Of a stretch of DNA of 25,625 bases, positions 9,647 through 25,625 are shown piece by piece. The DNA comes from a virus. Lineage: Duplodnaviria; Heunggongvirae; Uroviricota; Caudoviricetes. The notes beneath the pieces are model-generated. The model did not search any database. It saw only the letters and a list, made by a program, of their open reading frames with translations, and was not told the origin of the DNA. Made by a program: the position numbers and the translations under genes. Positions within the stretch are counted from its first letter, which is position 1. Each line of letters begins with the position of its first letter. Where the stretch lies: IMG/VR virus record IMGVR_UViG_2531839476_000020. One strand, 5' to 3'.

Positions 9647-9743
9647 ATAAAAACGTACTACTTCCCTAGTACACATGAGGAGTTGGGTCAGTTGGTTGCC
9701 AACCTGAACAGGCACCTTTAAGCCTGCTTCTGTTCGGGTACCT

Positions 9744-10052
9744 TTAAACCCGAAACAGTGAGGAGCGCGATTGCGATCCAGCCAGGGGAGGTTCGGCTGT
9801 ATACCCCTGTAAAGCTCTGCCCTGATTTCTTACAAACAGGCGGAGCCTTGTGTTTGCTTCGTGCCTTGCTCTGTTCTCCTTGCGGAATGAAACAGGCTCA
9901 GCGTCAAAAGTGATTTCGTATACCTCCGCATATTTCAGGGCAACCTTCCGTCTCAGTGACGGAGGCAGCCCCTGTAACTGCTGCTGAATCCACTCTTCGT
10001 CTGCCTGGCAGTACCTAGATGGCATCTCTGTCTGAACGTAATTCTGGGACAT
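9744..10052 (-). CDS. hypothetical protein, 102 aa, downstream of cro-like gene (cII-position ORF)
   Basis: ORF overlapping the cro-like 3' end by 38 nt; no recognisable motif and a low-complexity C-terminal tail. Confidence 0.35.
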   Translation of the reverse strand: MSQNYVQTEMPSRYCQADEEWIQQQLQGLPPSLRRKVALKYAEVYEITFDAEPVSFRKENRARHEANTRLRLFVRNQGRALQGYTAEPPLAGSQSRSSLFRV

Positions 10053-10302
10053 ACAAGCCCTTCACCTCCCCCGTGCGCGCTAAGCTTGGATGTGGAAAAA
10101 GCTCTGGTAGGTCTGGCCGAAATTCATACGCTTGGATCTTTCCGTCGACAGCTGCAACCAATAACGGCACAAATTCTGGTGAAATCTTGTTCTTGCAGTT
10201 CAACCAATCGCAGACTGTTGACTGGGCCTTTCCGCATCGCTTGGCTAAGGCTTGCTGACTTCCAAGAATCTCAATAGCTTTCTCTATGGCTTTATGTTTC
10301 AT
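10015..10302 (-). CDS. Cro-like HTH regulator
   Basis: Start chosen at MKHKAIEKAIEILGSQQALAKRCGKAQSTVCDWLN (RBS AGGAG 7 nt upstream). HTH motif present; divergent from the cI-like gene. Confidence 0.65.
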   Translation of the reverse strand: MKHKAIEKAIEILGSQQALAKRCGKAQSTVCDWLNCKNKISPEFVPLLVAAVDGKIQAYEFRPDLPELFPHPSLARTGEVKGLYVPELRSDRDAI

Positions 10303-10324
10303 AATCGCATCTCCTATTGAACGC

Positions 10325-10353
10325 ATAATAACAACAGGAAAAGCGATATTCAA
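10325..10353 (-). promoter_or_regulatory. PR-like sigma70 promoter for the cro-like/early-right operon
   Basis: Minus strand TTGAAT (10353-10348), 17-nt spacer, TATTAT (10330-10325), about 25 nt upstream of the cro-like RBS. Confidence 0.5.
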
Positions 10354-10367
10354 CGTTAAACATAGAA

Positions 10368-10389
10368 TATTTATCGGAAAGCCGATAAA
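10368..10389. promoter_or_regulatory. operator-like palindrome between cro-like and cI-like genes
   Basis: TTTATCGG-AAAG-CCGATAAA perfect 8-bp inverted repeat in the divergent promoter region. Confidence 0.5.
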
Positions 10390-10421
10390 CTAGCCAAGAT
10401 AGAGAGGGGAGGAAAATCGCA

Positions 10422-11114
10422 ATGACATTTTCAGAACGACTTGATTTAGCTATGCGCAACGCAAAATTTACGCAAGGTAGGCTGGCCAAAGAAGTGGGTA
10501 TGGCTCAGTCCAGTGTTAATCAACTACTTAACAAAGCCAACGGTTCCAGAAAAACAGTCGAAATAGCAAAAGTTTTGGGCGTTAACCCGGAATGGCTCGC
10601 ATCGGGTGTTGGCCCAATGGAAATCGTGACCTCTGCAGACTCACACCAAATACGTAACATTTCTGAAGATTGGGTTACTGATTCGTATGTCGTGGATGTT
10701 TTAGACATCAGATATAGTTGCGGACCTGGTAGTTATAACTCTGATTTTCCTGATATTGTCAGATCTATAGCGATAGAACCAGGATACGCATCAAGAGTTT
10801 TTGGCGGCAGACCAGCATCAGCAATCAAAGCAATAAACGCCCACGGCGACAGTATGAAAGGCACAATAGACCCTGAAGACTTGGTATTTGTAGATGTATC
10901 AGTTCGCACATTTAATGGTGATGGTATATACGCCTTTACATACTCTGGAACATCGCACATCAAAAGACTTCAAAAAATCAAAGATACTCTAACGGTGATA
11001 TCTGACAACCCAGCTTACAAGGATTGGGCTATCGAACCGGAAGACTTCGAACAACTTCACATTGACGGAAAAGTAATTGTCAGTTGGCCTATGACACTAC
11101 ACCGTTTTGCATAA
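10422..11114 (+). CDS. CI-type prophage repressor (N-terminal HTH + C-terminal S24/LexA-like peptidase)
   Basis: 230 aa; HTH LAKEVGMAQSSVNQLL; C-terminal GDSM serine motif and downstream Lys typical of autocleaving repressors; RBS GGAGG. Confidence 0.9.
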   Translation: MTFSERLDLAMRNAKFTQGRLAKEVGMAQSSVNQLLNKANGSRKTVEIAKVLGVNPEWLASGVGPMEIVTSADSHQIRNISEDWVTDSYVVDVLDIRYSCGPGSYNSDFPDIVRSIAIEPGYASRVFGGRPASAIKAINAHGDSMKGTIDPEDLVFVDVSVRTFNGDGIYAFTYSGTSHIKRLQKIKDTLTVISDNPAYKDWAIEPEDFEQLHIDGKVIVSWPMTLHRFA

Positions 11115-11132
11115 GCAAAAATCATTTAACCC

Positions 11133-11158
11133 GCCCACTCTTAAGTGGGCTTTTTTTT
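11133..11158 (+). terminator. intrinsic terminator after the cI-like gene
   Basis: GCCCACT-CTTA-AGTGGGC hairpin followed by TTTTTTTT. Confidence 0.6.
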
Positions 11159-11179
11159 GGGAAAAAATCGATAAACCGA

Positions 11180-11208
11180 TTGACAGGTGAAATCGGTAAA
11201 CCTATTAT
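11180..11208 (+). promoter_or_regulatory. PL-like sigma70 promoter with flanking operator-type inverted repeat
   Basis: TTGACA (11180-11185), 17-nt spacer, TATTAT (11203-11208). ACCGAT ... ATCGGT arms bracket the -35 and share the CCGAT/ATCGG motif with the operator at 10368-10389. Confidence 0.55.
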
Positions 11209-11257
11209 CTTGACATAGGTATCGAACTCACCAAAGCAATTATAGAGGATGAGAAAA

Positions 11258-11668
11258 ATGTCATCGTATATGGGATTACCAACAAATCAGCACGATGCTC
11301 TTGAGAATATTCAGCTCTTAGTAGGGACTGGTGCACTACTGTATAGCAGCAATAACCCTGAGTTAATTGAACTTGCCAGCTCCATCCTGGCTGTAACTCA
11401 AAAATATAGCCTCACCGCGTCACGTTTATGCAAACAAAATTTAGCTATTAATTCCCAGAATCGGATTCGCACCCAACGCGAAACCTGCGGCTTAACAACC
11501 GCCGAACTCGCTAGGCTGCTCGATCTCGATGAAGAAATTATCATCCAGTGGGAGAGCGGAGAGTACGAACCAACCATCAGCATGCTTATCCCTCTGGCTA
11601 ATGTTCTTGGCTGTGATCCAATGTTGTTATTGACTGATGCTTATAAACAAAATCAGGAGGAAGCATAA
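11258..11668 (+). CDS. HTH (XRE-family) domain protein, first gene of the PL-like operon
   Basis: C-terminal TQRETCGLTTAELARLLDLDEEIIIQWESGEYEPTISMLIPLANVLG is an XRE-type HTH; RBS AGAGGA upstream of the second ATG. Confidence 0.65.
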   Translation: MSSYMGLPTNQHDALENIQLLVGTGALLYSSNNPELIELASSILAVTQKYSLTASRLCKQNLAINSQNRIRTQRETCGLTTAELARLLDLDEEIIIQWESGEYEPTISMLIPLANVLGCDPMLLLTDAYKQNQEEA

Positions 11669-11669
11669 G

Positions 11670-11861
11670 ATGAAAATGTTCAAAGGCCTTACCAACGAAC
11701 CGGAGACAACTTTTCATCACATTGCCGTACTGCTTGAAGCGGGGTTAATCATTTCGGCTTCCGGTGATGAAGAATGTGATGAACTTTCGGATGATATCTT
11801 TTTACTGGCACAACAATACGCCAGAAGCGCATGCGATGCATTTAAGGAGCAAAGAACATGA
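11670..11861 (+). CDS. hypothetical acidic small protein (64 aa)
   Basis: RBS AGGAGG before ATG at 11670; tightly packed with neighbours. Confidence 0.5.
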   Translation: MKMFKGLTNEPETTFHHIAVLLEAGLIISASGDEECDELSDDIFLLAQQYARSACDAFKEQRT

Positions 11862-12049
11862 AAACTCCATTAAATATTCTTGAGGAAGTGGCAGCACAAA
11901 TAAAAGAGAATACATCAATGCTTGAATTTATATTTAAGAATTCGCCCGACTCAGGAGAGACAGACGATTATTTATGTTGCCTCATTCGCTCCATGAATAA
12001 AACCTGTGAAATGGCTTACGCGTATATCGACACACTGCGCAACGAATAA
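11858..12049 (+). CDS. hypothetical small protein (63 aa)
   Basis: ATGA start/stop overlap with the previous gene; RBS AAGGAG. Confidence 0.5.
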   Translation: MKTPLNILEEVAAQIKENTSMLEFIFKNSPDSGETDDYLCCLIRSMNKTCEMAYAYIDTLRNE

Positions 12050-12233
12050 AGAAAACTCAATAAACAATCACCCATAAAAACATAACGGTCTCTGGTCGGG
12101 AATTTCCACAACCTGAAAATGGTGGTGATGCATGAAAAACAGAAGTGCTTATAAAACCGCATTATTAATGGCTAATGCAGGATACTGGTCAGTTGCAATA
12201 CTGTTTCTCAGGAAAGCATACGGGAAATAACAA

Positions 12234-12593
12234 ATGACACATGAACCCATTAATACATATCGTCGCCGTATAGCTGTTGCGGCACTCCATCGAATAAAAC
12301 GTAAAACAGGTGGTAATCTGCTTATTGTTGACCTTCCTGATGGGAACATTACGACCATAGAAATAACTGAACAGTTTATAAACCAGTTGCTGTTACGCTT
12401 CGAAGGTATTACCCGTGGTGAATTGGGCCGGGTGGAGGGTGAAACCGAAATCCACACTGCATACCAGAATGCTATCGGGATTAATCAACATACTGAATAC
12501 CTGACTGAAACCGGAAAGTTAATTATAGACAACCTTTTTCAAGAGATTATTGATTACGCGAAAGAAAAATATATCAGCGGAGGAATTAACTGA
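12234..12593 (+). CDS. hypothetical protein (119 aa)
   Basis: ORF coupled (ATGA overlap) to the downstream gene. Confidence 0.5.
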   Translation: MTHEPINTYRRRIAVAALHRIKRKTGGNLLIVDLPDGNITTIEITEQFINQLLLRFEGITRGELGRVEGETEIHTAYQNAIGINQHTEYLTETGKLIIDNLFQEIIDYAKEKYISGGIN

Positions 12594-12808
12594 TGGCTAA
12601 TTTATCCCCTGTATCTGTTGTGCACGAAAAAGTGCAGATCGTTATGACAATTGAAAATGGCCAAGTCACAGGTGTCTGCAAAGTCCGCGATGGCGAGCTG
12701 ATTGCCAGCATGGATACATTCATACGGCTGGCAGAAAGAGCGGGGTATCAGATAACAGCACCTGCTCAGGAGGAAACCGGTGGCATTAACAGCAACACGC
12801 ATTCCTGA
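12593..12808 (+). CDS. hypothetical protein (71 aa)
   Basis: RBS GGAGG; start overlaps the upstream stop. Confidence 0.5.
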   Translation: MANLSPVSVVHEKVQIVMTIENGQVTGVCKVRDGELIASMDTFIRLAERAGYQITAPAQEETGGINSNTHS

Positions 12809-12994
12809 GCGGATCCACCGGCAGGCATTGCAGGTCCTGTTGTTGTACCGATGCCGACGGATATTTCCGCATCGGATACAGCGCACCGGATATCTCAGTC
12901 TGAAGGTTAACCGTCGCTGGCGGCTGTTATCGAAAGACGACGGCCGGAACTGGGAAGTAATGAGTCATGAACGTTATTCGGGAGAAATAAAGAA

Positions 12995-13387
12995 ATGATC
13001 GACAACCGCACCGCCAGCACCATTGACCAGGCATTACAGAAACATGATACACCCGTCGGCCCGTTATTTTTTGTAACACGCCACGGAAGAACAAAAAAAT
13101 GCCTCACCCGAAAAACGGCAATTCGTTACCTGGCATTCTTTATGACCACCCGCGCTTTTGAACGTTCAGGATTCCGACAACGCTATCCTGACAAGCGTTT
13201 TATCTTCAACAGGAATGAGATATGGAAACGTGGAGAATCAACCACAGAGTATACCCGCGCACACCAGCGAACAATCAGACGACTGCGCAGACTCATCGCC
13301 AGGAAACAGTATACAGAAAAATGGTTCAGAAAATATGACACATGGAGCGCCGGATATTACGAACTGATGGCAACAAAACCATTCTGA
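12995..13387 (+). CDS. hypothetical highly basic protein (130 aa)
   Basis: RBS GGGAGA; Arg/Lys-rich, suggesting nucleic-acid binding. Confidence 0.5.
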   Translation: MIDNRTASTIDQALQKHDTPVGPLFFVTRHGRTKKCLTRKTAIRYLAFFMTTRAFERSGFRQRYPDKRFIFNRNEIWKRGESTTEYTRAHQRTIRRLRRLIARKQYTEKWFRKYDTWSAGYYELMATKPF

Positions 13388-13447
13388 CGTAAACGAAATT
13401 AACCATGACGCAATTAAATAAGGCAAGCCGAATACATCAGGAGGACC

Positions 13448-13636
13448 ATGAACATTTATTTCAGAATAGTTATATCACTGGCAATTATCACATGTATTTA
13501 CGGATTAATCGTTCCGGCCCTCATATCAATGAAGGATACGGTAGCAGTGATTTCTGGCTTTGCTCTGGCGTGTCTGACCCCGCCCTGCATTTATGCCATT
13601 TATAAGGGTCTTTCTTTTTCTAAGGATAAAAGATGA
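13448..13636 (+). CDS. small two-helix membrane protein (62 aa), coupled to the SPFH lipoprotein gene
   Basis: RBS AGGAGG; two hydrophobic segments (IVISLAIITCIYGLIVPALI and VISGFALACLTPPCIYAIY); stop overlaps the next start (ATGA). Confidence 0.55.
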   Translation: MNIYFRIVISLAIITCIYGLIVPALISMKDTVAVISGFALACLTPPCIYAIYKGLSFSKDKR

Positions 13637-14460
13637 AAAAATTACTTTTTGCTTTAGCCCTTGTTCTGCCGACCATTGGCCTTGTCGGTTGCGATCGCGT
13701 TGAGCCTGGTAATGTGGGCATCAAAGTAAACAAACTGGGCGACGATAAAGGCGTCGGTGAAGTGGTCGGTGTTGGGCGCTACTGGACGGGATGGAACACT
13801 GAGGTTTACATCTTCCCGACCTTTAAGCAGATGAAGACCTACGATGATCCATTCAGTTTCCAGATGAGTGACGGTACAACCATCGGCTATCACATCGGCG
13901 TGGCCTACAAAGTTGATCCATCCAAAGTTACCACAGTCTTTCAGACCTACCGCAAAGGCGTGGACGACATTACCGACACCGACCTGCGCCAGAAGATAGC
14001 CGACGCACTCAACCGACTGGCCAGCAAAATGACCACCGACAAATTTATCGACGGCGGCAAGTCTGAGCTGCTGGATGCAGCTCTTAAAGACATTCAGGAA
14101 GAAATGACGCCCATCGGTATTCAGGTAATGAGCCTCTCATATGTGGGTAAGCCGGAGTACCCACCTACTGTTATCGACAGCATTAATGCCAAAGTCACGG
14201 CGAACCAGAAAACCCTGCAACGCGAGCAGGAAGTAAAACAGCGCGAAGCGGAAGCCAACATGTTGCGCGCGGAAGCTGCCGGACAGGCAGATGCGATTCG
14301 CACAAAAGCCCAGGCCGAAGCCGATGCTATTCGTTTACGCGGTGAAGCTCTGCGCCAGAACCCCGGTGTTATGGAGCTGGAAGCCATCAACAAGTGGAAC
14401 GGTACACTGCCGCAATACATGACCAGCGGTGCCAACACACCATTTATTCAGGTTAAGTAA
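13633..14460 (+). CDS. SPFH/band-7 (prohibitin-like) domain lipoprotein
   Basis: Lipoprotein signal MKKLLFALALVLPTIGLVGC (lipobox LVGC); SPFH-like core and an Ala/Glu/Arg-rich coiled-coil tail QREQEVKQREAEANMLRAEAAGQADAIRTKAQAEADAIRLRGEALRQ. Confidence 0.75.
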   Translation: MKKLLFALALVLPTIGLVGCDRVEPGNVGIKVNKLGDDKGVGEVVGVGRYWTGWNTEVYIFPTFKQMKTYDDPFSFQMSDGTTIGYHIGVAYKVDPSKVTTVFQTYRKGVDDITDTDLRQKIADALNRLASKMTTDKFIDGGKSELLDAALKDIQEEMTPIGIQVMSLSYVGKPEYPPTVIDSINAKVTANQKTLQREQEVKQREAEANMLRAEAAGQADAIRTKAQAEADAIRLRGEALRQNPGVMELEAINKWNGTLPQYMTSGANTPFIQVK

Positions 14461-14503
14461 TACATATGCCCGGTATTACACGCCGGGCTGTCTGGAGATA
14501 AAA

Positions 14504-15253
14504 ATGAATATTGTAACCATCAACAACAAACAGTTTCCGGTAATCGAATATCGCGGTCAGCGTGTTGTGACATTTGCAATAATTGATGACGTCCACCAGC
14601 GCCCGGAAGGTACCGCCCGTGCTGCGTTTAACCGCAACCGTTCTCACTTTATCGAAGGGGTGGATTTTCTTGAAATGACTGCGGACGTAATACGTACGGA
14701 GTCACTTTCTGATGCCTTTGCCGCGCGAACTGCCAAAGGGATCATTCTTTTCGAGTCTGGTTACCTGATGTTGACGAAGCCTTTTAACGATGCTCTTGCA
14801 TGGCAGGTTCAGCGCGAACTGGTTAACAGCTATTTCCGAACTCACGCGCCGCTGACGGAAATGGAGATGATCGCTGCAATGGCCGCCGATGCCGTTCGCC
14901 AGCAGAAGCGCCTGAGTCATGTTGAAGAGAAGATCGAAACGGTCACCAAAGCTGTGGAGAACATCAAACGCGGCACAATGCGCACCGGATATGTCGGTTA
15001 CCGCCAGGTGGTAGCCAAAAGCGGAATGAGTGACGCCAAGTGTCGGAATCTGGTCAACGCCTACCACATCCCTACCGACACGCACGAATTTATGACTCCG
15101 GACGGTCTGTTGTCTCGCAGGGCTGTCGTCGAGCTTGAGACATTTATGGCGGCGTTCCACCAAATGATGTCAGAGGCTGAACCACGCGGCACACGCTGGT
15201 ATCACCCGAAGATGGGGCTTTTTCAGGTAATCGGATGGGAGGATAAAGCATGA
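14504..15253 (+). CDS. ORF6N/KilA-N domain protein (antirepressor-like)
   Basis: Start at MNIVTINNKQFPVIEYRGQRVVTFAIIDDVH (RBS GGAG); N-terminal domain typical of phage ORF6N/KilA-N DNA-binding modules. Confidence 0.65.
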   Translation: MNIVTINNKQFPVIEYRGQRVVTFAIIDDVHQRPEGTARAAFNRNRSHFIEGVDFLEMTADVIRTESLSDAFAARTAKGIILFESGYLMLTKPFNDALAWQVQRELVNSYFRTHAPLTEMEMIAAMAADAVRQQKRLSHVEEKIETVTKAVENIKRGTMRTGYVGYRQVVAKSGMSDAKCRNLVNAYHIPTDTHEFMTPDGLLSRRAVVELETFMAAFHQMMSEAEPRGTRWYHPKMGLFQVIGWEDKA

Positions 15254-16552: not shown

Positions 16553-17685
16553 CTATTCGTAAGCATAAAACTGCTTCAACACTAGTTATCACTTTCACAT
16601 ATAAAGGGGTTCTTTGCAGGGAGCCCCTGTCTCGGCTTGAGGCAAATACACGTGGTATTAAATATGCTGAGCGCCTGCTAGGGGAGATACAAAATCAGAT
16701 CGCCAGCGGAACGTTTGAATATGCGAAATATTTCCCCAGTTCCAAAAAACTGGAGTTATTCGGTGTAGTAAAGAAAACCAAAAATATTAAGTCCTATCTT
16801 GATGAATACCTGAAAATTTGCATGAACCGCAATCTGTCGCCGTCAACCATTGGCGGTTACGAAAAATGTCTATCAGCACTATCAGAACTACATAAACTAC
16901 ATGTAACAGAATTGACGCCTGCGGTACTAAAAAATTGGATAGCCAGCCGAAAAACTAAGCTGAAAACAATCAGGAATAACCTGTCATTTCTGCGCAGCGC
17001 CATTGATGAGGCTGTAACTGATGGCCTGTTGACTATTAACCCGGTAACTCTTGTCAGCGCCAGCCGGTATCACGTGGTCGACAGTAAACCGAACGCCGAC
17101 GATTACGAAGTTGATCCGTTTGCGCCTGCGGAAACCAGTGCCATATATCAGCACTGCAAGTATCAGGAATGGCAGAATCTGTTCCGCTTCGCCTTCAATA
17201 CAGGGCTACGCAGCTCTGAGCTATGCGCATTACGTTGGACCGATATCGACTTTATAGGTAATACAGCGCACATACAGGCGGCCAGTGTCGTAGGGGTACT
17301 TAAAGGCACCAAGACAAAAGCCGGTACCCGTAAGGTGGAGCTGAACAGTGAGGCGCTGGCGGCCCTGCAGGCGCAGAAGCAATACACCTTTATGAAAAGT
17401 GAGTTCATATTCAGCGATCCGAAAACGGGAGATCCCTGGACGAACGCCGACGCTATCCGTAAAAAAGCATGGGTGCCGACCCTGAAAAAAGCTGGTGTGC
17501 GCTACCGTAACCCGTACCAGACGCGCCACACATTCGCCACCAGACACATTAGCCAGGGTGTAAACCTTTTCTGGCTTGCCGGGCAGATGGGGCATAAGGG
17601 GCCGGAAATGCTGTTCCGCAATTACGGTAAATACCTGGCTGAATACGACGGGAAAACCGCAATGGAATCTGGAATGAAGAAGTGA
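16507..17685 (+). CDS. tyrosine site-specific recombinase (lambdoid prophage integrase)
   Basis: 392 aa; the C-terminal region carries the conserved residues of the tyrosine recombinase catalytic set (Arg in FNTGLRSSEL, His-x-x-Arg in TRHTFATRH, His in MGHKG, Tyr in LFRNYGKYL); N-terminal arm-type DNA-binding region. Confidence 0.9.
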   Translation: MGKKEQGLLSLPRGVTIRKHKTASTLVITFTYKGVLCREPLSRLEANTRGIKYAERLLGEIQNQIASGTFEYAKYFPSSKKLELFGVVKKTKNIKSYLDEYLKICMNRNLSPSTIGGYEKCLSALSELHKLHVTELTPAVLKNWIASRKTKLKTIRNNLSFLRSAIDEAVTDGLLTINPVTLVSASRYHVVDSKPNADDYEVDPFAPAETSAIYQHCKYQEWQNLFRFAFNTGLRSSELCALRWTDIDFIGNTAHIQAASVVGVLKGTKTKAGTRKVELNSEALAALQAQKQYTFMKSEFIFSDPKTGDPWTNADAIRKKAWVPTLKKAGVRYRNPYQTRHTFATRHISQGVNLFWLAGQMGHKGPEMLFRNYGKYLAEYDGKTAMESGMKK

Positions 17686-17697
17686 TTTGAAGAAAAA

Positions 17698-17721
17698 ACC
17701 CGGCAAATGCCGGGTCTTTTT
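17698..17721. terminator. bidirectional intrinsic terminator between convergent int and cargo genes
   Basis: CCCGGC-AAAT-GCCGGG hairpin flanked by AAAAAA upstream and TCTTTTT downstream. Confidence 0.65.
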
Positions 17722-17726
17722 GATGG

Positions 17727-18494
17727 TTATTCTGTCGCGCCACCTATCGAAACATAATCATGAAATTGATCGTCAATGAGTCGGTCCTTACAGATAACAT
17801 GTACAATGTGACGACAACAGTTTTCATCATCATACGCACGACCCCAGCGAACAATCTCATCTACAGACAGATCATTCGCACTCCATGGCAAAGTACCTGA
17901 AACGCCACGCGCACCTGGACCAAGTATGTCCATAAATTTCTTCGTGCGTGAATTGTAGATCCGTACCTCGGCAATTCGAATGATGCTACTAGCCCAAAGA
18001 GCACCACCGGCAATACTTTGAATGTTATCGCAGATGAGAAACTCATGCTTTCGCGCAAGCATTTTATAGATCTCACGCGCCAAACCTGCTGATTGGAAAT
18101 CCTGTGCGATAACAGCGCTTTTCACTTGCTTTCCGGTCATCATCTGACCGTTCTCTTCGATAAAATTAAAGTCGTTGAACTGTATACGACCTATTCTTAT
18201 CGTTTTGTTATCGTCTACCATATCAAGACCCAAGAGGGTATTGACCAGATCCTGCATTGGAACCTTCGAATCAAGAAGGTCACTGCCATAGTCTAAAAAA
18301 AAGTCGTCGGTGGAACATCCCAGTTGATACACATCCAAGTAGTACTGAAACTCACCAGAACTGACAATGTACTCATCAGCCCTCAGTAAGCCAGCCTCGG
18401 CAGTGAAAAAATAGAATGACTCAATAAGACGTTTTTCGCCAAATGGCGTAATGTTCAAGTCCTTGTTATATGAAGGTATTAACGCAGGAGCCAT
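17727..18494 (-). CDS. hypothetical protein (255 aa), second gene of an int-to-att cargo operon
   Basis: Long ORF convergent with int, 11 nt downstream of the 113-aa gene; no recognisable catalytic motif. Confidence 0.6.
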   Translation of the reverse strand: MAPALIPSYNKDLNITPFGEKRLIESFYFFTAEAGLLRADEYIVSSGEFQYYLDVYQLGCSTDDFFLDYGSDLLDSKVPMQDLVNTLLGLDMVDDNKTIRIGRIQFNDFNFIEENGQMMTGKQVKSAVIAQDFQSAGLAREIYKMLARKHEFLICDNIQSIAGGALWASSIIRIAEVRIYNSRTKKFMDILGPGARGVSGTLPWSANDLSVDEIVRWGRAYDDENCCRHIVHVICKDRLIDDQFHDYVSIGGATE

Positions 18495-18505
18495 TCAGCA
18501 ACCTT

Positions 18506-18847
18506 TTAATGGTAGTTAATTTCCCTGTAGTTCTTCTGCATGTATAGAGCAATTGCCGCTTCAATTTTCTTCAGCAGATTACTGCTTACATACTGAGGAT
18601 ACTGATCTGCTGGCTTCACAACATAGCGCAATTTTTCTTTGTTCATGGCGATCTCAGCGAACGGGATCACGTCACCGTCACGAACCTCATTGTTCAATGT
18701 CACAATAAACAGCTGACGTGCCGGGGAGACACGATCACTCAGTCTTCTCACGAAGAACTCGTTTGCTGTGTTTGAGTCAACAAAAGAACTGACGAGTTGA
18801 GTCCGACGCTCAATCGTCTGTATCGATCTTCTCGCTACTGTTCTCAT
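18506..18847 (-). CDS. hypothetical protein (113 aa), first gene of an int-to-att cargo operon
   Basis: RBS GAGGAG 6 nt upstream of the ATG; preceded by a structured leader. Confidence 0.55.
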   Translation of the reverse strand: MRTVARRSIQTIERRTQLVSSFVDSNTANEFFVRRLSDRVSPARQLFIVTLNNEVRDGDVIPFAEIAMNKEKLRYVVKPADQYPQYVSSNLLKKIEAAIALYMQKNYREINYH

Positions 18848-18886
18848 GCTAGTCTCCTCAACACTTCACTGGCTGTGCAGTGAAGG

Positions 18887-18924
18887 TACAAAAAGCCACT
18901 GATGATAACAGCGTCATCAGTGGC
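18887..18924 (-). terminator. terminator-like hairpin inside the leader of the 113/255-aa operon (possible attenuator)
   Basis: 11-bp stem GCCACTGATGA/TCATCAGTGGC followed on the minus strand by TTTTTG; a second 8-bp hairpin CTTCACTG/CAGTGAAG (18864-18885) lies between it and the RBS. Confidence 0.45.
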
Positions 18925-19176
18925 CCTTGATGGTGATAACCGCAGTTACCTAAATAGTATGATATTACCTTACGGGTAATTCTTCAACGATTGCTCTGAA
19001 TTGAATAGTCTTGAAGTGCTATGAACAGCACAAAACAGCGCTAATCACCGCCCCAGTGGCGCCTAAACACTTCAAAATGTTGGACAGAATCAGGACGTTA
19101 GAGGTACTACAATATGCACGTAAAATGCACGTGAGGTATTTTAAATTAGAAAAATCATTAATATTCAATTGGTTAA

Positions 19177-19217
19177 GAATTTTTCGGATACGGGTTCAAC
19201 TCCCGCCAGCTCCACCA
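19177..19217 (+). other. ssrA: 3' fragment of ssrA (tmRNA) ending in CCA; att core shared by the prophage right end and the P4-type island left end
   Basis: GAATTTTTCGGATACGGGTTCAACTCCCGCCAGCTCCACCA matches my recollection of the E. coli tmRNA 3' end (T-arm, acceptor stem, CCA). No matching 5' acceptor strand or tmRNA body lies upstream. Confidence 0.7.
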
Positions 19218-19382
19218 CTTTTTAGTTGTTTGAAGTTCAATGAAGTCTACTAAGCCCACACAGCACAAGCTCTGCGGGCTTTTTTACGTCTATTGTCGTC
19301 CAGTGAGAATTGCTGAGAACTACGAGTTATGGCACCCTGAATGGGACCCACTAAGAAGGGTCCAAAAACCGAGGGTCCCAAA

Positions 19383-20612
19383 ATGGCAAAAATCGCTAAG
19401 AAGCTCACTGACACTGAAATCAAAAGCACCAAGCCAGCCGATAAAGAAATCAACTTGTTTGACGGTGATGGTCTGATTCTACGAATCGCTCCTTTGGCGA
19501 AAGGAGGCAAGAAAAATTGGTATTTCAGGTATGCAGTACCAGTGAGCAAGAAAAGAACCAAAATGAGCCTTGGGACATATCCTCACCTTACCCTTGCAAG
19601 AGCCAGAGCCTTACGTGATGAATATCTCTCCTTTCTGGCAAATGGTGTTGATCCCCAAATCCATAACAACGATAAGGCGAAGGCATTAAAGAGTGCTACT
19701 GAGCACACTCTCCAAGCCGTAGCGCGGAAATGGTTAGATGAGAAGGTAAAGACATCAGGTATCTCACAAGACCATGCAGCAGACATCTGGCGCAGCTTAG
19801 AGAGAAATGTCTTTCCCGGTCTGGGTAATGTCCCTATCAATGAGATCCGACCTAAGCTCTTAAAACAACACCTTGATCCTATTGAGCAACGAGGCGTATT
19901 GGAAACTCTACGCCGTATCATTTCACGTCTGAATGAAATCTTCCGGTGGGCAGCTACTGAAGAACTTATTGAGTTCAACCCGGCTGACAACCTTGGTCAA
20001 AGATTCAGTAAACCAAAAAAGCAAAATATGCCTGCCCTTCCCCCAAGCGAATTGCCAAGGTTTATGGAATCTTTGACGAATGCGTCAATCCGGTTGGAAA
20101 CACGTATGCTAATTGAATGGCAATTGTTGACATGGGTTCGTCCGGGTGAAGCCGTTCGCGCAAGGTGGTCTGATATTGATACAACCAACAGCATTTGGAA
20201 CATTCCTGCTGATTTCATGAAAATGAAAAAGCTTCACAAAGTTCCTTTGAGTAAAGAAGCTTTGCGCATCCTTGAATTAATGAAATCAATAAGTGGGCAT
20301 AGAGAATGGGTTTTCCCCAGCATAAAAGCGCCTCTTAATCATATGCATGAACAAACAGCCAACGCAGCTATCATCCGAATGGGGTTCGGAGGCGAGCTTG
20401 TAGCTCACGGTATGCGTTCTATTGCACGAACAGCGGCAGAGGAGTCTGGTAAATTCAGAGCTGAAGTTCTTGAGGCAGCGCTTGCCCACTCGAAAAAAGA
20501 TGAAATTATCGCAGCATACAATCGTGCAGAATATCTGATAGAGCGACAGAGTTTGATGCAATGGTGGAGTGATTACGTTCAAGCTCAAAGATCAAATGCT
20601 CTGGTAGCCTAA
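19383..20612 (+). CDS. P4-type tyrosine integrase (IntA-like)
   Basis: Start at MAKIAKKLTDTEIKSTKPADKEINLFDGDGLILRI, the typical P4-family integrase N-terminus; C-terminal AHGMRSIARTAAEESG and catalytic Tyr region; lies directly 3' of the ssrA fragment. Confidence 0.9.
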   Translation: MAKIAKKLTDTEIKSTKPADKEINLFDGDGLILRIAPLAKGGKKNWYFRYAVPVSKKRTKMSLGTYPHLTLARARALRDEYLSFLANGVDPQIHNNDKAKALKSATEHTLQAVARKWLDEKVKTSGISQDHAADIWRSLERNVFPGLGNVPINEIRPKLLKQHLDPIEQRGVLETLRRIISRLNEIFRWAATEELIEFNPADNLGQRFSKPKKQNMPALPPSELPRFMESLTNASIRLETRMLIEWQLLTWVRPGEAVRARWSDIDTTNSIWNIPADFMKMKKLHKVPLSKEALRILELMKSISGHREWVFPSIKAPLNHMHEQTANAAIIRMGFGGELVAHGMRSIARTAAEESGKFRAEVLEAALAHSKKDEIIAAYNRAEYLIERQSLMQWWSDYVQAQRSNALVA

Positions 20613-21138
20613 GTATCAGAATAGCTAATATAATCCTGAAGGTAAAGAAAATGGAAACCCTATTCAAAGTTTTTGAAAAATTTAGTTCCAGACCACTTTT
20701 TTTTATTTTTTTCGGACTCTCACTTTGTGAATTTTTTCAGAAACAATCTGTTCTGATGAATCCATCAGCAGATAACATCGCGAAATTATTCGCAGCCATG
20801 ATATTAGTTGTTTTTTTACTTGGGGATTTGAATGGCTAATCTTCAAGTTCAATGTAAACCTTGAACCTCATGATCAAGGCGATATTGGACCAACAATTGG
20901 AACGGCTACTTTAGCTGTATACTTAGTTTATGCCTTTCACTTTCTCAGTGAAAATCCTGAAGCATTAAATTTAAAGTTATTAACTAACTCTGGCTTTATA
21001 TACAGCACAACTCTATTATTATTCTCATTAGAATGCATGAAGCTTAGAAGACTTAAACAAAAATAAACAACATCATTGTGATGATAAATATAAAATAGGC
21101 ATGGCGAAAAAAAAATCACCACGCCTAAAATATAATAA

Positions 21139-22887
21139 TTATGGTAGCATCATTGATACATAATCCACACCAATCCTTGAGCTATACTGAGACGCTATAG
21201 CCTGATATCTTTCTGCATAACCAGTTCTCAGTTGAGATTTAAGTTTGAGTCGGACAGGAACATTTTGCACGTTGCCATCCATATTACTTAAAAACACGGC
21301 AGAAATAATATTTTTTTCTTCGCCATCAACTGTTGTTCCATGATTCAACACCACCATATAATCAACAACAGGAAGCGTTTTATCCCCTTCGAAAATAGAG
21401 AGATATTTTCTTTGATTTTTATGCATTACATATATATATTTCGAATGTTCAGCAAATGGCAATGCTTTACTCTGACTGGCGTTAAAAAGCTCCAGAACTT
21501 TAATGAGCCTGTGCGGACTTAATCTTACATGGTGAGGGTCGTTACCCTGAGTAGGAACCAAATCACATGCCGCAGATACACATAAATACCATTTGTTCGA
21601 CTCTGTATCAAAGAAAATAGTGCCAGTAGAAATATGACCATCTTCAAAATTCTTTGAAGACAAATTCATATTTAAAGCATGATACATTTCGTGATAAGTA
21701 TCATTATTTGATGGCAGATCCATTTTTGAAGAGCAATATTGGAGCAATGCAGCAACTCCGCTGTTAGCGTATTCATTTGAATAGCTATCAAAAACACTTT
21801 TGATAAATTCATCCAGCGTATTATTATTTTTAAGTCTTTGATAAAGCTCTTCTGATAAATTACCAAATACAAAGTCAATATTTCTACATCTAATATCAGG
21901 CGAGTCTGATTTTAATATCTCATTTAACCACGCAGCTTGACCGTAATGATCGTTAGCCAAATGATTTACAAAAGATAAAGCCTCAGCTTCGATTGCATTC
22001 TGAATTTCAGATTTTATTAACTGATAATAAGATGGTTTCCATTCAATGAGAGAATCATTGAGAGTTTGCCAAATCCTATCTCCATCGTTTTCATGATCAT
22101 CTTGAACCTTATGAAATAGGGAGACAAAGATATTACCACATTGAATCCATTTTACTCCGCTTTCATCACCCCGAATGACATTGCCAGATGTGTTGCTAGA
22201 AATAATTGCATTTCTAGACACAGCATATTCTGCAATCATTTTTGCAATGAAGTTTTTATCCTTTTGTTCCTCCAACACAGCATCATCATGTATTAATCTT
22301 TTAATTCTTCTACAAGGCTTACTGTCTTTAATATAGGCTATTGTTTCATCTCTTGTGAGAGCTTTATTACCATTATCATTTAAGTTCGGTAATACAACGT
22401 CTTCCCAATAACTTTGGACATCTTCATTATCGTAGTCAATGATCAAGCTGTTGATATCCAGAGCACCTTTGAGAGTCGATGATATCTGCATCCAAACCGT
22501 TTCTAAATTCTCTCTAGTATATATTACAATCATATTTAAATGATCGGAGTCTTTCAAATCTTGTAATAGTTTAAGTGTTTTATCAGGTGCATTATTATCA
22601 AGATGATAATCTACAATAATAAGATCTGATTTTCTAATCCGATCCACATCGAAATTAACAGAACCATTGTCAACATCACAAATCATATTTTTAGATTGAA
22701 AAAAGCTCTCAAGAGTAGCGGCTCGTTTAGATGAGTCAATTTTGTTGTAGTCTAAATCAACTTCGTTATTCAACGCCCTGATTGATTCAGAATACGTCAG
22801 AAAATCGTCATCAATCATGACAACGGAACGAATTGCATTTTCGCAGAAAGTTTTCTGGACAAGAGAATTATAATTTGCCACTGTCAT
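21139..22887 (-). CDS. receiver (REC) domain protein with an uncharacterised ~450-aa C-terminal domain; candidate effector of a two-component-like module
   Basis: N-terminus has REC hallmarks: acidic pair VVMIDDD, putative phospho-acceptor Asp in DLIIVDYHLD, conserved Thr in NMIVIYT. The rest has no motif I can name. Start assigned to the second ATG (22887), preceded by TGGAG and abutting the kinase stop (TAATATG). Confidence 0.75.
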   Translation of the reverse strand: MTVANYNSLVQKTFCENAIRSVVMIDDDFLTYSESIRALNNEVDLDYNKIDSSKRAATLESFFQSKNMICDVDNGSVNFDVDRIRKSDLIIVDYHLDNNAPDKTLKLLQDLKDSDHLNMIVIYTRENLETVWMQISSTLKGALDINSLIIDYDNEDVQSYWEDVVLPNLNDNGNKALTRDETIAYIKDSKPCRRIKRLIHDDAVLEEQKDKNFIAKMIAEYAVSRNAIISSNTSGNVIRGDESGVKWIQCGNIFVSLFHKVQDDHENDGDRIWQTLNDSLIEWKPSYYQLIKSEIQNAIEAEALSFVNHLANDHYGQAAWLNEILKSDSPDIRCRNIDFVFGNLSEELYQRLKNNNTLDEFIKSVFDSYSNEYANSGVAALLQYCSSKMDLPSNNDTYHEMYHALNMNLSSKNFEDGHISTGTIFFDTESNKWYLCVSAACDLVPTQGNDPHHVRLSPHRLIKVLELFNASQSKALPFAEHSKYIYVMHKNQRKYLSIFEGDKTLPVVDYMVVLNHGTTVDGEEKNIISAVFLSNMDGNVQNVPVRLKLKSQLRTGYAERYQAIASQYSSRIGVDYVSMMLP

Positions 22888-22888
22888 A

Positions 22889-24607
22889 TTAGAACTCCAC
22901 TCCATTGAACTGGATCACAAAATTAGCGCCATCTTTTATTAAATAGTTATCGCCTTCATCAGGTTCTGAATACCATATTTTATGATGTGCAACAGCAAGG
23001 TTTTCTCGACATAGATACAGACCTACCCCATGTCCATTTGCTCTTTTGCTATAAAATAGTTCAAATAGTCGCGGGATATCATCGGTATCAATTGCCGGAC
23101 CAGAATTTGCTATGATAACCAAAGAATTCACAAAACCAATCTTTATGAGCCTATTATTTGACAGACTGACCCAATACATTGCATTGTTGATAATATTAGT
23201 AAAAACAGGATAGATCCTTGATGGTATATCTGTTATTGCGATTTGCTTAAACTCTTCACTAAATTCAATAGTTATTCGTTGCCGTTCGAAACGCTCCCCA
23301 AAGAACTTCAGGACATAATCCATGATATTTTTTCCAGTTATTCTCTGCCTGGATTGATAACCTGATATTTTCAAAGGTGATAAGAAACGTATTTGTTGAG
23401 TAAGCGATCTGTGAGCATTTAACGCCAATGAAAAACCAGGGTGTTCTTTTACAGAAGTAGGAAGAGAGTTTAGTCCTCTGGTTACCATAGAATCCATTTC
23501 TTCAAGTTCATGAGATATTATCTCAACACTAATACCTAACTGTGCAAGCGCGTTTAAACTTTTAGCTTTTTCTTCAAAATATGAGCGTTCTTCTTCAGAT
23601 AATGAGAATGCTGAATCTAAGTTTATACCTTCAAATAATCTATCGAGACCTTTTATTATTGATTGATATTTGAAAGTTAGGGTATCAACTGACTCAACAT
23701 ATAAACTATCGAGCAAATTAAACACATTTTCAATTTGTGAATCATTATCTATTGAATCAACAACTGATATAGTTTTAGCATAATAATCACTTCGATCAAC
23801 CTTTATTTCATCGGCCCATTTTTTTAAAAGAGAATGTATCTTCTCCTCTATCGTGTTATTAAACTTAGTTAGTTTAGAATTAATAATACCTTGATTTTTT
23901 TCAAGGTGATTTTTCGCTGACAATGAAGGCTCAAGTTTATTTAATTCAGAATCAAGTTTATTAATTGCTAACTTCATTTGTAGAATATACGCAGAGAACT
24001 CATTAAATTTATCTCTGTAGTCTCTATATTTCTCTTCATACATTCCAAGTTTTGGAGGTTTGATAGGCGTTTTAATTTCACTGCGCAACGCATCTAAGTT
24101 TGTAAGATCACTGTCTATAATTTTAAGATAGTTTAAATCTAACGAACCATCAGTTTTATCAAGCTTAGTTTTCAGCCTTTTAACAGCCTCCAAGGAAGCA
24201 TCAAGAACTGGTGTCTGATTCTTCAAAGCTTCTGAAAAACTTTTTTGTGTTGATTTTCGAGCTTGTTGTTGAGCAGATTTTCTTAACTCTTTTTCACGCT
24301 TAACTTGTTCTAAAAGCTCTTTACGGTCATCAGAACGTGAACCAAAAAATCTATCAGCAAGTTCAGTTAACAAATTAGATATAATAGTTTTCAGTTCTCT
24401 TGCAGCCTGGTTTCTTATGAATCCCTCTCTCCCCGACTTATCTTTCAGCTCTTTATTACTGGATTGAGTAATTCCAATATAACCAAAAATCCTTCTATTA
24501 GACCAATAATATCGCCCTGCATTCCATGAACGTCTTTCTTCTATCTGGAAGAAATCATTATCTACTCGACCATAAGGTAATACTCTCAAGCTATCCCTAA
24601 AAATCAT
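22889..24607 (-). CDS. cytoplasmic histidine-kinase-like protein (HisKA H-box + HATPase_c), probably 5'-truncated by IS3
   Basis: H-box ISVEIISHELEEMDS; N-box IYPVFTNIINNAMYW; G1 IIANSGPAIDTDDIPRLFELFYSK; G2 GHGVGLYLCRENL. No transmembrane segment and a long coiled-coil middle. The frame stays open for 41 codons upstream of the ATG at 24607, up to the IS3 terminus at 24729. Confidence 0.75.
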   Translation of the reverse strand: MIFRDSLRVLPYGRVDNDFFQIEERRSWNAGRYYWSNRRIFGYIGITQSSNKELKDKSGREGFIRNQAARELKTIISNLLTELADRFFGSRSDDRKELLEQVKREKELRKSAQQQARKSTQKSFSEALKNQTPVLDASLEAVKRLKTKLDKTDGSLDLNYLKIIDSDLTNLDALRSEIKTPIKPPKLGMYEEKYRDYRDKFNEFSAYILQMKLAINKLDSELNKLEPSLSAKNHLEKNQGIINSKLTKFNNTIEEKIHSLLKKWADEIKVDRSDYYAKTISVVDSIDNDSQIENVFNLLDSLYVESVDTLTFKYQSIIKGLDRLFEGINLDSAFSLSEEERSYFEEKAKSLNALAQLGISVEIISHELEEMDSMVTRGLNSLPTSVKEHPGFSLALNAHRSLTQQIRFLSPLKISGYQSRQRITGKNIMDYVLKFFGERFERQRITIEFSEEFKQIAITDIPSRIYPVFTNIINNAMYWVSLSNNRLIKIGFVNSLVIIANSGPAIDTDDIPRLFELFYSKRANGHGVGLYLCRENLAVAHHKIWYSEPDEGDNYLIKDGANFVIQFNGVEF

Positions 24608-24728
24608 TAGTCCTGCATACTTTTTGGCCTTAAGATCAAAGTGGGAATGTTCACGTTCAGTATGTGATGTATTTTGTGAAAGGAATTCAAACGTTCCTAT
24701 CTGAAGCTCAAATGGGCCGACCCCTGCG

Positions 24729-25625
24729 TGATCCTACCCACGTAATATGGACACAGGCCTAAGCGAGGTTCTTGTTTTCAAATTGTTCCGGACTGAGGCC
24801 GCCACACCAACTGTGCCGCCGCCACCGATTGTAATCACATTCGATATAATTAAACACCGTTGCCCGCATTATTTCCCGGCTGATAAAGTGTTCTCCATGG
24901 ATACATTCCACTTTCAGCGAATGAAAGAAGCTTTCCACGCAGGCATTATCGTAGCAGCAACCTTTTGCGCTCATACTTCCACGCAGATTATGCCGCTTCA
25001 GTTGCGCCTGATAATCTGCTGAACAGTACTGGCCTCCACGGTCCGTGTGAACGATAACGTTCCGGGGCCTCTTACGCCGCCACAGCGCCATCTGCAGGGC
25101 ATCGCAGGCCAGTTGCGCCGTCATGCGTGGCGACATTGACCAGCCAATAACGGCACGTGACCACAGGTCAATGACCACTGCCAGATACAGCCAGCCTTCA
25201 TCTGTACGTAAGTACGTGATGTCTCCTGCCCACTTCTGGTTCGGGCCACTGGCGTAAAAATCCTGCTCCAACAGATTTTCTGACACAGGCAGGCCGTGTG
25301 CGCGGTAGCTGACCGGGCTGAACTTCCGGGAGGCCTTTGCCCTCAGTCCCTGACGGCGCAGGCTTGCCGCCACGGTTTTTACGTTAAAGGGGTAACCCTG
25401 AGCACGCAGTTCATCCGTCAGGCGTGGGGCACCGTAACGCTGTTTTGACCGGGTAAAAGCCGCGAGGACAACGCTGTCGCAGTGTTGGCGGAACTGCTGA
25501 CGCGTGCTTATCCTTGTCCGCCGCTGACACCACGTATACCAGCCGCTGCGGGCCACCCGGAGCACGCGGCACATTGCTTTGATGCTGAACTCAGCCTGAT
25601 GTTTTTCAATAAAGACATACTTCAT
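24729..25625 (-). mobile_element. IS3 insertion sequence, orfB-side portion (element continues beyond the window end)
   Basis: Terminal inverted repeat TGATCCTACCCACGTAATATGGACACAGGCCTAAGCGAGG begins at 24729 and is followed by the complete orfB. Confidence 0.9.
24759..25625 (-). CDS. insF: IS3 transposase OrfB (DDE integrase domain)
   Basis: 288 aa matching my recollection of IS3 OrfB; start codon is at the last three bases of the window, so orfA and the frameshift site lie outside. Confidence 0.9.

Follow-up and report, generated by a model that had tools for sequence, protein, structure and literature searches.

An AT-rich block in a Caudoviricetes record as the probable truncated left arm of an ssrA-integrating island with a kinase/regulator operon

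This study concerns an AT-rich block at positions 20613-24728 of a stretch of 25,625 nucleotides (the window), taken from the Caudoviricetes virus record IMGVR_UViG_2531839476_000020. The original prediction, made from the sequence alone, described it as very AT-rich island cargo beginning at the stop codon of a P4-type integrase, recently acquired from a donor of low guanine-plus-cytosine (GC) content and liable to silencing by H-NS. The block is very probably the surviving left arm of a mobilisable island that integrates at ssrA, the transfer-messenger RNA (tmRNA) gene, and holds what the insertion sequence IS3 has left of a methylase-linked kinase/regulator operon. The original cargo would have been a tightly packed operon for a C5 DNA methylase, a kinase of 988 amino acids (aa) and a regulator of 582 aa. 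The soluble kinase would join an N-terminal GHKL/paraMORC ATPase to a C-terminal histidine-kinase core (HEF_HK plus HATPase_c), and its partner would join an atypical receiver (Response_reg_2) to an uncharacterised output domain. An IS3-associated deletion would then have taken the methylase gene, the first 416 kinase codons and the remaining island up to the ygaQ pseudogene, leaving in Escherichia coli the integrase, a small hypothetical gene, an intact regulator gene and a kinase stump. In sum, the compositional break is an ordinary one for island cargo, and what the block contains is a known system, named in 2021 and functionally untested, in degraded form. Neither the identity of this cargo nor the fact that IS3 cuts it in half formed part of the original prediction.

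Probable truncation of the island by IS3 and spread of the remnant in E. coli

Positions 19182-24729 of the window are collinear with intact islands at 98.9% nucleotide identity, and the homology ends exactly at the IS3 terminal repeat. The IS3 end lies on the minus strand at 24729-25625 and runs past the end of the window; it comprises the terminal inverted repeat (TGATCCTACCCACG...) and transposase orfB, with Pfam matches to rve, rve_2 and HTH_21. The KSC1031 annotation of the same element is IS3 transposase. Abutting it, and co-oriented with orfB, is a 5'-truncated histidine-kinase-like gene. Its 572-aa open reading frame (ORF) starts from an internal Met and occupies 22889-24607 on the minus strand, with the Pfam domains PF19191 HEF_HK and PF02518 HATPase_c. 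Between that Met and the IS3 end, a start-less in-frame remnant of the kinase continues over 24608-24728 (minus strand); it was traced by homology to the island of a read-set assembly (locus L002) up to 24729 and compared with the open frame of the Salmonella enterica contig AAMSIC010000008.1 (L009).

Full-length kinases that are 99% identical to the stump measure 988 aa, bear the source labels Klebsiella, Serratia and Salmonella, and have an N-terminal PF13589 HATPase_c_3 domain. This paraMORC domain is absent from the 572-aa ORF by Pfam and present in the 988-aa relatives; the lost 416 N-terminal residues hold the Bergerat ATP-binding motifs ELWKNAYDA, DNGCGM and GEKGIGRLS. On these comparisons, the E. 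coli kinase gene is evidently a truncation product of the 988-aa kinase. In KSC1031, IS3 is followed directly by a truncated ygaQ pseudogene and then by glaH-lhgO-gabDTP. Because IS3 adjoins the pseudogene directly there, an IS3-associated deletion appears to have removed the rest of the island.

The near-identical intact islands were found in Salmonella and in two read-set assemblies. Their gene order is smpB, ssrA, P4-type integrase, a 138-aa gene, regulator, 988-aa kinase, C5 methylase, several hypothetical genes, relaxase, and three tandem tyrosine recombinases. The Salmonella loci L005-L008 have the tmRNA gene and the same island genes, with no smpB inside the flank fetched. The methylase gene is present in L002, L005, L009 and L011, and is absent from the window. 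In L002, the genes for methylase, kinase and regulator together span 8812-14717. The order methylase-kinase-regulator recurs in three diverged lineages, with genes that overlap or lie 1 nt apart. An operon in Aeromonas, for example, has the same gene order, with a kinase that is 65% identical and a regulator that is about 44% identical. Relatives were found in only 2 of 72,556 plasmid records, both of them distant.

The right half of the parent island, which is deleted in E. coli, occupies 1-7213 of L002. A relaxase gene with its NikA-like accessory is present there, as are three tyrosine-recombinase-like genes in a row, of which one (543 aa) has no Pfam match. By this gene content, the parent element resembles an integrative mobilisable element that carries a recombinase trio. 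Directly upstream of the methylase lies a hypothetical gene of about 200 aa and 25% GC (L002 8098-8721 and L009 2089-2676). Its two versions share 25% identity (E 4e-11), and it does not occur in the Aeromonas operon; it was treated as island backbone rather than as a fourth operon component.

The remnant was found in 586 of 5426 complete E. coli genomes (about 11%); 562 of these copies are at least 99% identical, and 484 genomes have the exact same IS3 junction. At megablast sensitivity, the methylase or the N-terminal half of the kinase was found in none of the 5426 genomes. Every junction examined has the same kinase break point. In E. coli O111:H8 02-3334 (L014), this break point occurs without IS3, and the stump abuts the ygaQ pseudogene directly. 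These patterns point to a single ancestral truncation, which would now be inherited by about 11% of sequenced E. coli. In O111:H8 02-3334, the P4-type integrase is cut by IS1203; the regulator and stump ORFs are still open as their neighbours decay.

The short kinase form also raises a question of annotation. Entries of 572 aa are recorded under Klebsiella, Yersinia, Morganella, Serratia, Pectobacterium and Shigella as well, which suggested that a split or short kinase might be a natural form. For L009 this was rejected: the record calls a 572-aa "ATP-binding protein" at 3984-6983, and the frame there is open for 999 aa, including the full N-terminal ATPase domain, which indicates a misplaced start. 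The abundant truncated protein of E. coli may have served as the model for the short start called in L009. The family was defined as PF19191 and PF19192 by Bellieny-Rabelo, Pretorius and Moleleki (2021, Genome Biol Evol, PMC8011034) in a computational description that already used an E. coli member as an example. The window copy has the "group 2" architecture of that paper, which here is an IS3 truncation and in a Salmonella record a mis-called start codon. Thus, the very abundant 572-aa "ATP-binding protein" of E. coli is evidently a truncation product, and group 2, the short architecture of the family, may be partly artefactual.

Composition of the block and the question of its origin

Direct counts give the block a GC content of 33.9%, against 49.8% for the remaining window (binomial z about -20). 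The original description is accurate except that its figure of roughly 30% for the block is slightly below the computed 34%. Taken over the whole sequence, other windows of 4116 bp have GC values between 0.442 and 0.568 (mean 0.493, sd 0.033), so that no other stretch of this length falls below 44.2%. In sliding windows of 500 bp, all values between 20501 and 24750 lie at 0.29-0.38, with 0.41-0.46 on the integrase side and 0.53-0.59 in IS3. A two-boundary maximum-likelihood segmentation, run over 17000-25625, delimited a strandless AT-rich segment at 20610-24691, with 33.6% GC inside and 0.477 outside. These breaks are 3 and 37 bases off the ends first proposed for the block (20613 and 24728). 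The left one coincides with the stop codon of the P4-type integrase (20612), and the right one lies just inside the start of the IS3 inverted repeat (24729). The compositional break right of the integrase stop is thus real.

Coding properties follow the same pattern. Within the block, two genes lie on the minus strand, and a small frameshifted gene lies on the plus strand. GC at third codon positions (GC3) is 0.28 and 0.25 in the two minus-strand genes and 0.42-0.62 in neighbouring genes, and codon usage in the block is far from that of nearby core genes. Runs of at least six A/T occur at 2.9 per kb in the block vs 1.5 per kb elsewhere. The residues F, Y, M, I, N and K make up 33% of the block's proteins; in the two proteins, Asn accounts for 8.8% and 6.5%, Ile for 7.3% and 8.6%, and Lys for 5.9% and 8.0%. 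The long A/T runs and the Asn/Lys/Ile-rich proteins noticed by eye are both borne out by these counts. Overall, AT content is 66% in the block, about 50% in the rest of the window and about 47% in nearby core genes.

AT-rich cargo beside an integrase at a tRNA or tmRNA site is a textbook signature of a genomic island. The P4-type integrase at its head, the ssrA 3' repeat on its left and relatives with 98.9% nucleotide identity elsewhere agree with the earlier view of the block as horizontally acquired island cargo. What composition says about the source is a separate matter. The original prediction implied a fresh import from a low-GC organism, whose donor composition had not yet drifted to that of E. 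coli; the 34% GC, the GC3 of 25-28% and the codon usage unlike that of local core genes would all fit such an event, and among the more distant relatives, at 62-65% identity, many come from the low-GC genus Acinetobacter. Against this, the nearest copies are as AT-rich in GC-rich hosts. The intact island has 0.25-0.39 GC almost throughout, with only the integrase and relaxase regions reaching 45%, and the flanking genes in L002, the host of one nearest copy, have 52-58% GC. The Aeromonas operon, at 65% protein identity, has 34-38% GC within flanks of 56-64% GC. GC is therefore flat across hosts, and low GC appears from these sequences to be a persistent property of the gene family and the island, kept in GC-rich hosts over long divergence. 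Because it persists in this way, composition can neither date the acquisition nor name its source. The proposed low-GC donor was accordingly not upheld, and a fresh import from one is improbable.

The recency of the acquisition held in one sense and failed in another. Synonymous divergence between island copies across genera is only 0.008-0.08, which indicates that the island moved between enterobacterial genera recently. Within E. coli, the block is no fresh arrival, as one truncated form is common to about 11% of complete genomes.

Silencing by H-NS is expected for AT-rich DNA. By analogy with the AT-rich immunity loci that a 2026 preprint describes as bound and silenced by H-NS, silencing of this 66% AT block would be a reasonable expectation.

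The kinase/regulator pair and its possible function

The stump matches PF19191 with 26.1 bits (cut-off 24.1) and PF02518 with an E-value of 1.8e-11; by NCBIfam it is only weakly similar to classical sensor kinases. It retains the invariant His, the N box, the G2 box and the C-terminal ATP-binding domain. The phospho-accepting His366, in a SHELEE box, is invariant in 17 kinase sequences and corresponds to His782 of the full-length protein. One nucleotide away from the kinase gene is the intact response-regulator-like gene (21139-22887, minus strand), which encodes 582 aa from the annotated Met within a frame open to 22905 (588 aa). Residues 25-181 match PF19192 Response_reg_2 (E 3.6e-31, 109 bits, cut-off 27), and Pfam finds no further domain in the protein. 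A terminator-like hairpin with a 12-bp stem followed by a T-run was found by consensus scan just downstream of this gene (21096-21127, minus strand).

From its N-terminus, the regulator comprises a receiver domain, a helical region and a beta-rich output domain at the C-terminus. An AlphaFold model built with 50 homologues is confident (pLDDT 86). Residues D32, D33, D99, T130 and K266 are invariant in 50 regulator sequences; this pattern marks D32/D33 as the predicted acidic pair and Asp99 as the predicted acceptor. Asp99 is numbered in the 588-aa frame and equals Asp93 of the 582-aa protein. Lys266 comes after a helical insertion of about 100 residues, which accounts for the restriction of the Pfam match to residues 25-181. 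In a separate model of the last 353 residues (pLDDT 84), a helical bundle is followed by a beta-rich domain with the conserved motifs TTGT, PACD, QLR-x-YA-R and SRIGVD. The C-terminal output domain takes up residues of about 414-588.

Searches with the output domain returned no relative of named function. Six diverged C-terminal fragments had no meaningful Pfam match even at E-values up to 10, a sequence-profile search of the PDB was likewise empty, and Foldseek against the PDB gave no significant match. A MazF/CcdB/Kid fold (the CcdB/MazF barrel) for the beta-rich domain would be a weak lead from modelling, with no support from Foldseek, Pfam or the PDB profile search. The C-terminal 174 aa, used as a phmmer query against 1.84 billion representatives, yielded 185 matches; nearly all of them form the C-terminal end of proteins about 560-660 aa long, and a few proteins of 170-260 aa may be fragments. 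The output domain thus seems essentially confined to this regulator architecture, and other architectures are not evidenced.

By its features the pair belongs with the HEF_HK/Response_reg_2 family: both Pfam domains score above threshold and lie in adjacent genes, the kinase is a soluble protein, and the conserved His and Asp are present. In PMC8011034, the two genes are linked in 91.6% of cases over 644 loci, an upstream C5 methylase is frequent, and 83% of the kinases have an N-terminal HATPase_c_3 (paraMORC) domain; no experimental function is given. The parent islands resemble most members in carrying the upstream methylase and HATPase_c_3. The window copy differs from most members in lacking the HATPase_c_3 half and the methylase, as a deletion product would.

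Two better-studied groups offer comparisons. In Detocs (Rousset et al. 2023, bioRxiv 10.1101/2023.01.24.525353), a phosphorelay from a kinase to a receiver-effector is a proven anti-phage design, and His and Asp mutants abolish phage defence. The pair studied here is similar in its cytoplasmic kinase, in a receiver fused to a non-DNA-binding output domain and in its mobile/defence context, and by analogy it may also transfer phosphate. However, Detocs has a stand-alone buffer receiver (DtcB) that occurs neither in the window nor in the intact operons, and it senses through TPR repeats, where the present system has a MORC-type ATPase plus a methylase. Its outputs are PNP, REase, TOPRIM or transmembrane domains; no such effector domain was found on the regulator by Pfam or structure searches, and there was no PADLOC match. 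On these grounds, the pair is not a member of Detocs. The second group is the paraMORC ATPases, which associate with restriction-modification operons (Iyer, Abhiman and Aravind 2008, PMC2292703). The intact protein shares with them the N-terminal HATPase_c_3 domain, intact ATP-binding motifs and the link to a cytosine methylase; it differs in its fusion to a histidine-kinase core and in having a receiver protein as partner where they have helicases or nucleases, and the paraMORC part is deleted in the window. The DefensePredictor paper mentions a predicted HATPase-REC system, in a figure legend only, and its identity with the HEF_HK/Response_reg_2 family could not be established.

From the likeness to Detocs and the association of paraMORC with restriction-modification operons, we infer for the intact operon a methylation-linked role in conflict or defence, in which it would operate in the manner of Detocs. 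The MORC-type ATPase half may sense the status of DNA or nucleotides, and sensing may drive autophosphorylation of the conserved His in the kinase core. The phosphate would then be handed to Asp99 of the regulator, and the phosphorylated regulator would release the activity of its C-terminal output domain, while the methylase may mark self DNA. The E. coli copy, without sensor and methylase, is most likely an inert or deregulated remnant, and it is probably poorly expressed. Near-identical intact copies in other hosts provide a ready construct to test both the defence role and the output domain of the regulator.

Several points weigh against this reading. The literature searched contains no experiment that ties the HEF_HK/Response_reg_2 family to defence and no report of phosphotransfer between a HEF_HK kinase and a Response_reg_2 protein; a literature search on three RefSeq protein accessions found no mention of them. 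PADLOC models match neither the regulator, the stump nor the full-length kinase, and the methylase alone was matched, as a generic Type II methylase. With no Pfam or significant Foldseek match for the output domain, no effector activity can be named, and no restriction nuclease is evident within the operon. As for inertness, neither ORF is interrupted in those annotated copies that were examined; the regulator differs from the intact island by 2 nonsynonymous and 12 synonymous changes.

The 2021 paper (PMC8011034) instead proposes that the pair regulates restriction-modification systems, so that the intact pair would be an ordinary signalling system controlling nearby restriction-modification genes and needing no effector of its own. 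Its neighbourhoods are enriched in restriction-modification domains, and Type I and Type IV restriction genes do lie near the operon in L011 and L009. Yet the methylase-kinase-regulator trio travels as one translationally coupled operon into unrelated neighbourhoods; this explanation was rated lower because no DNA-binding output domain is detectable, and it seems unlikely, if still credible. Another view concerns the remnant itself. If the stump were translated from its internal Met, perhaps after read-through transcription from the co-oriented IS3, it could phosphorylate the regulator, and the pair could be under selection. The core motifs of the kinase are kept and both ORFs are annotated as intact in hundreds of genomes, amid decaying neighbours: KSC1031 has a frameshift in the integrase, O111:H8 has an integrase cut by IS1203, and the small gene of the window carries a frameshift. 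The excess of synonymous changes in the regulator also fits such selection. The stump, however, shows 5 nonsynonymous vs 3 synonymous changes against the intact island (compared with the regulator, Fisher p = 0.052), which hints at relaxed constraint, though the counts are too low for a decision. Copies within E. coli diverge by at most 0.2%, which leaves too little time for visible decay, promoter-like sites in the block are no commoner than in shuffled sequence, and the sensor ATPase and partner methylase are lost. A working remnant is therefore rather improbable. Bolder still, and quite a long shot, is the idea that the intact operon is a methylation-coupled phosphorelay immune system with a new toxin-like output domain, and that the remnant in about 11% of E. 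coli retains activity, for example in a sensor-less form restrained by H-NS.

Island borders and other features of the window

Homology to the intact islands begins at 19182, where the sequence matches the final 36 nt of the tmRNA gene located by ARAGORN in L002 and L005. This 36-nt copy of the ssrA 3' end (19182-19217, plus strand, ...GGATACGGGTTCAACTCCCGCCAGCTCCACCA) is the attachment-site repeat and bounds the island on its left. The left-hand prophage of strain E110019 matches the window only as far as 19217. The DNA to the left is thus a different element, a lambdoid prophage that in E110019 also ends at the ssrA repeat, and the block is the second element of a tandem array at ssrA, since the prophage beside it is separate and ends at the same repeat. 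No second attachment repeat was found at the far end of the island, where the right part is replaced by IS3 and then the ygaQ pseudogene; the window ends within IS3. The window contains no complete tRNA or tmRNA gene.

The integrase gene starts 124 nt downstream of the repeat. It occupies 19341-20612 on the plus strand, has 45% GC and encodes a P4-type tyrosine integrase of 423 aa with the Pfam domains Arm-DNA-bind_3, Phage_int_M and Phage_integrase. It matches NCBIfam PRK09692 (E 4.8e-132) and is 98.0% identical in nucleotides to the integrase of L002. CP4-57 of E. coli K-12 is an ssrA-integrating island with a P4-type integrase. The present island is like ssrA-integrating P4-type islands in its P4-family integrase, its ssrA 3'-end repeat, its tandem arrangement with a prophage and its place upstream of ygaQ-glaH-gabDTP. 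It differs in its cargo and in the deletion of its right half, the part that holds the relaxase and three tandem tyrosine recombinases in L002.

Between the integrase and the regulator lies a small hydrophobic hypothetical gene (20651-21066, plus strand), which was delimited by alignment with L001 and L002 and encodes 138 aa in other copies; the 138-aa protein has no Pfam match. A T8-to-T7 change at 20811-20817 frameshifts the gene here and leaves a 62-aa ORF. Intact copies occur in the Salmonella and read-set-assembly islands and in KSC1031, whose annotation lists the product as hypothetical protein WP_000448925.1. Either a true mutation or a sequencing error in the homopolymer could account for the change.

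Some observations concern the DNA outside the island. Two genes (255 aa and 113 aa) at 17727-18847 on the minus strand lie between the prophage integrase and the ssrA repeat and have no Pfam or PADLOC match; the equivalent slot in KSC1031 (L001 9132-10448) holds a DarT/DarG (NADAR antitoxin) pair. This suggests that the prophage end is a variable cargo or defence hotspot. At the far left, an IS66-family transposase fragment (752-1729; 325 aa, truncated DDE domain) adjoins prophage late genes. Inside the lambdoid prophage, 4732-4904 on the minus strand is a full-length match to the small RNA STnc100 (RF02076, 108 bits, gathering score 47), the only Rfam match in the window.

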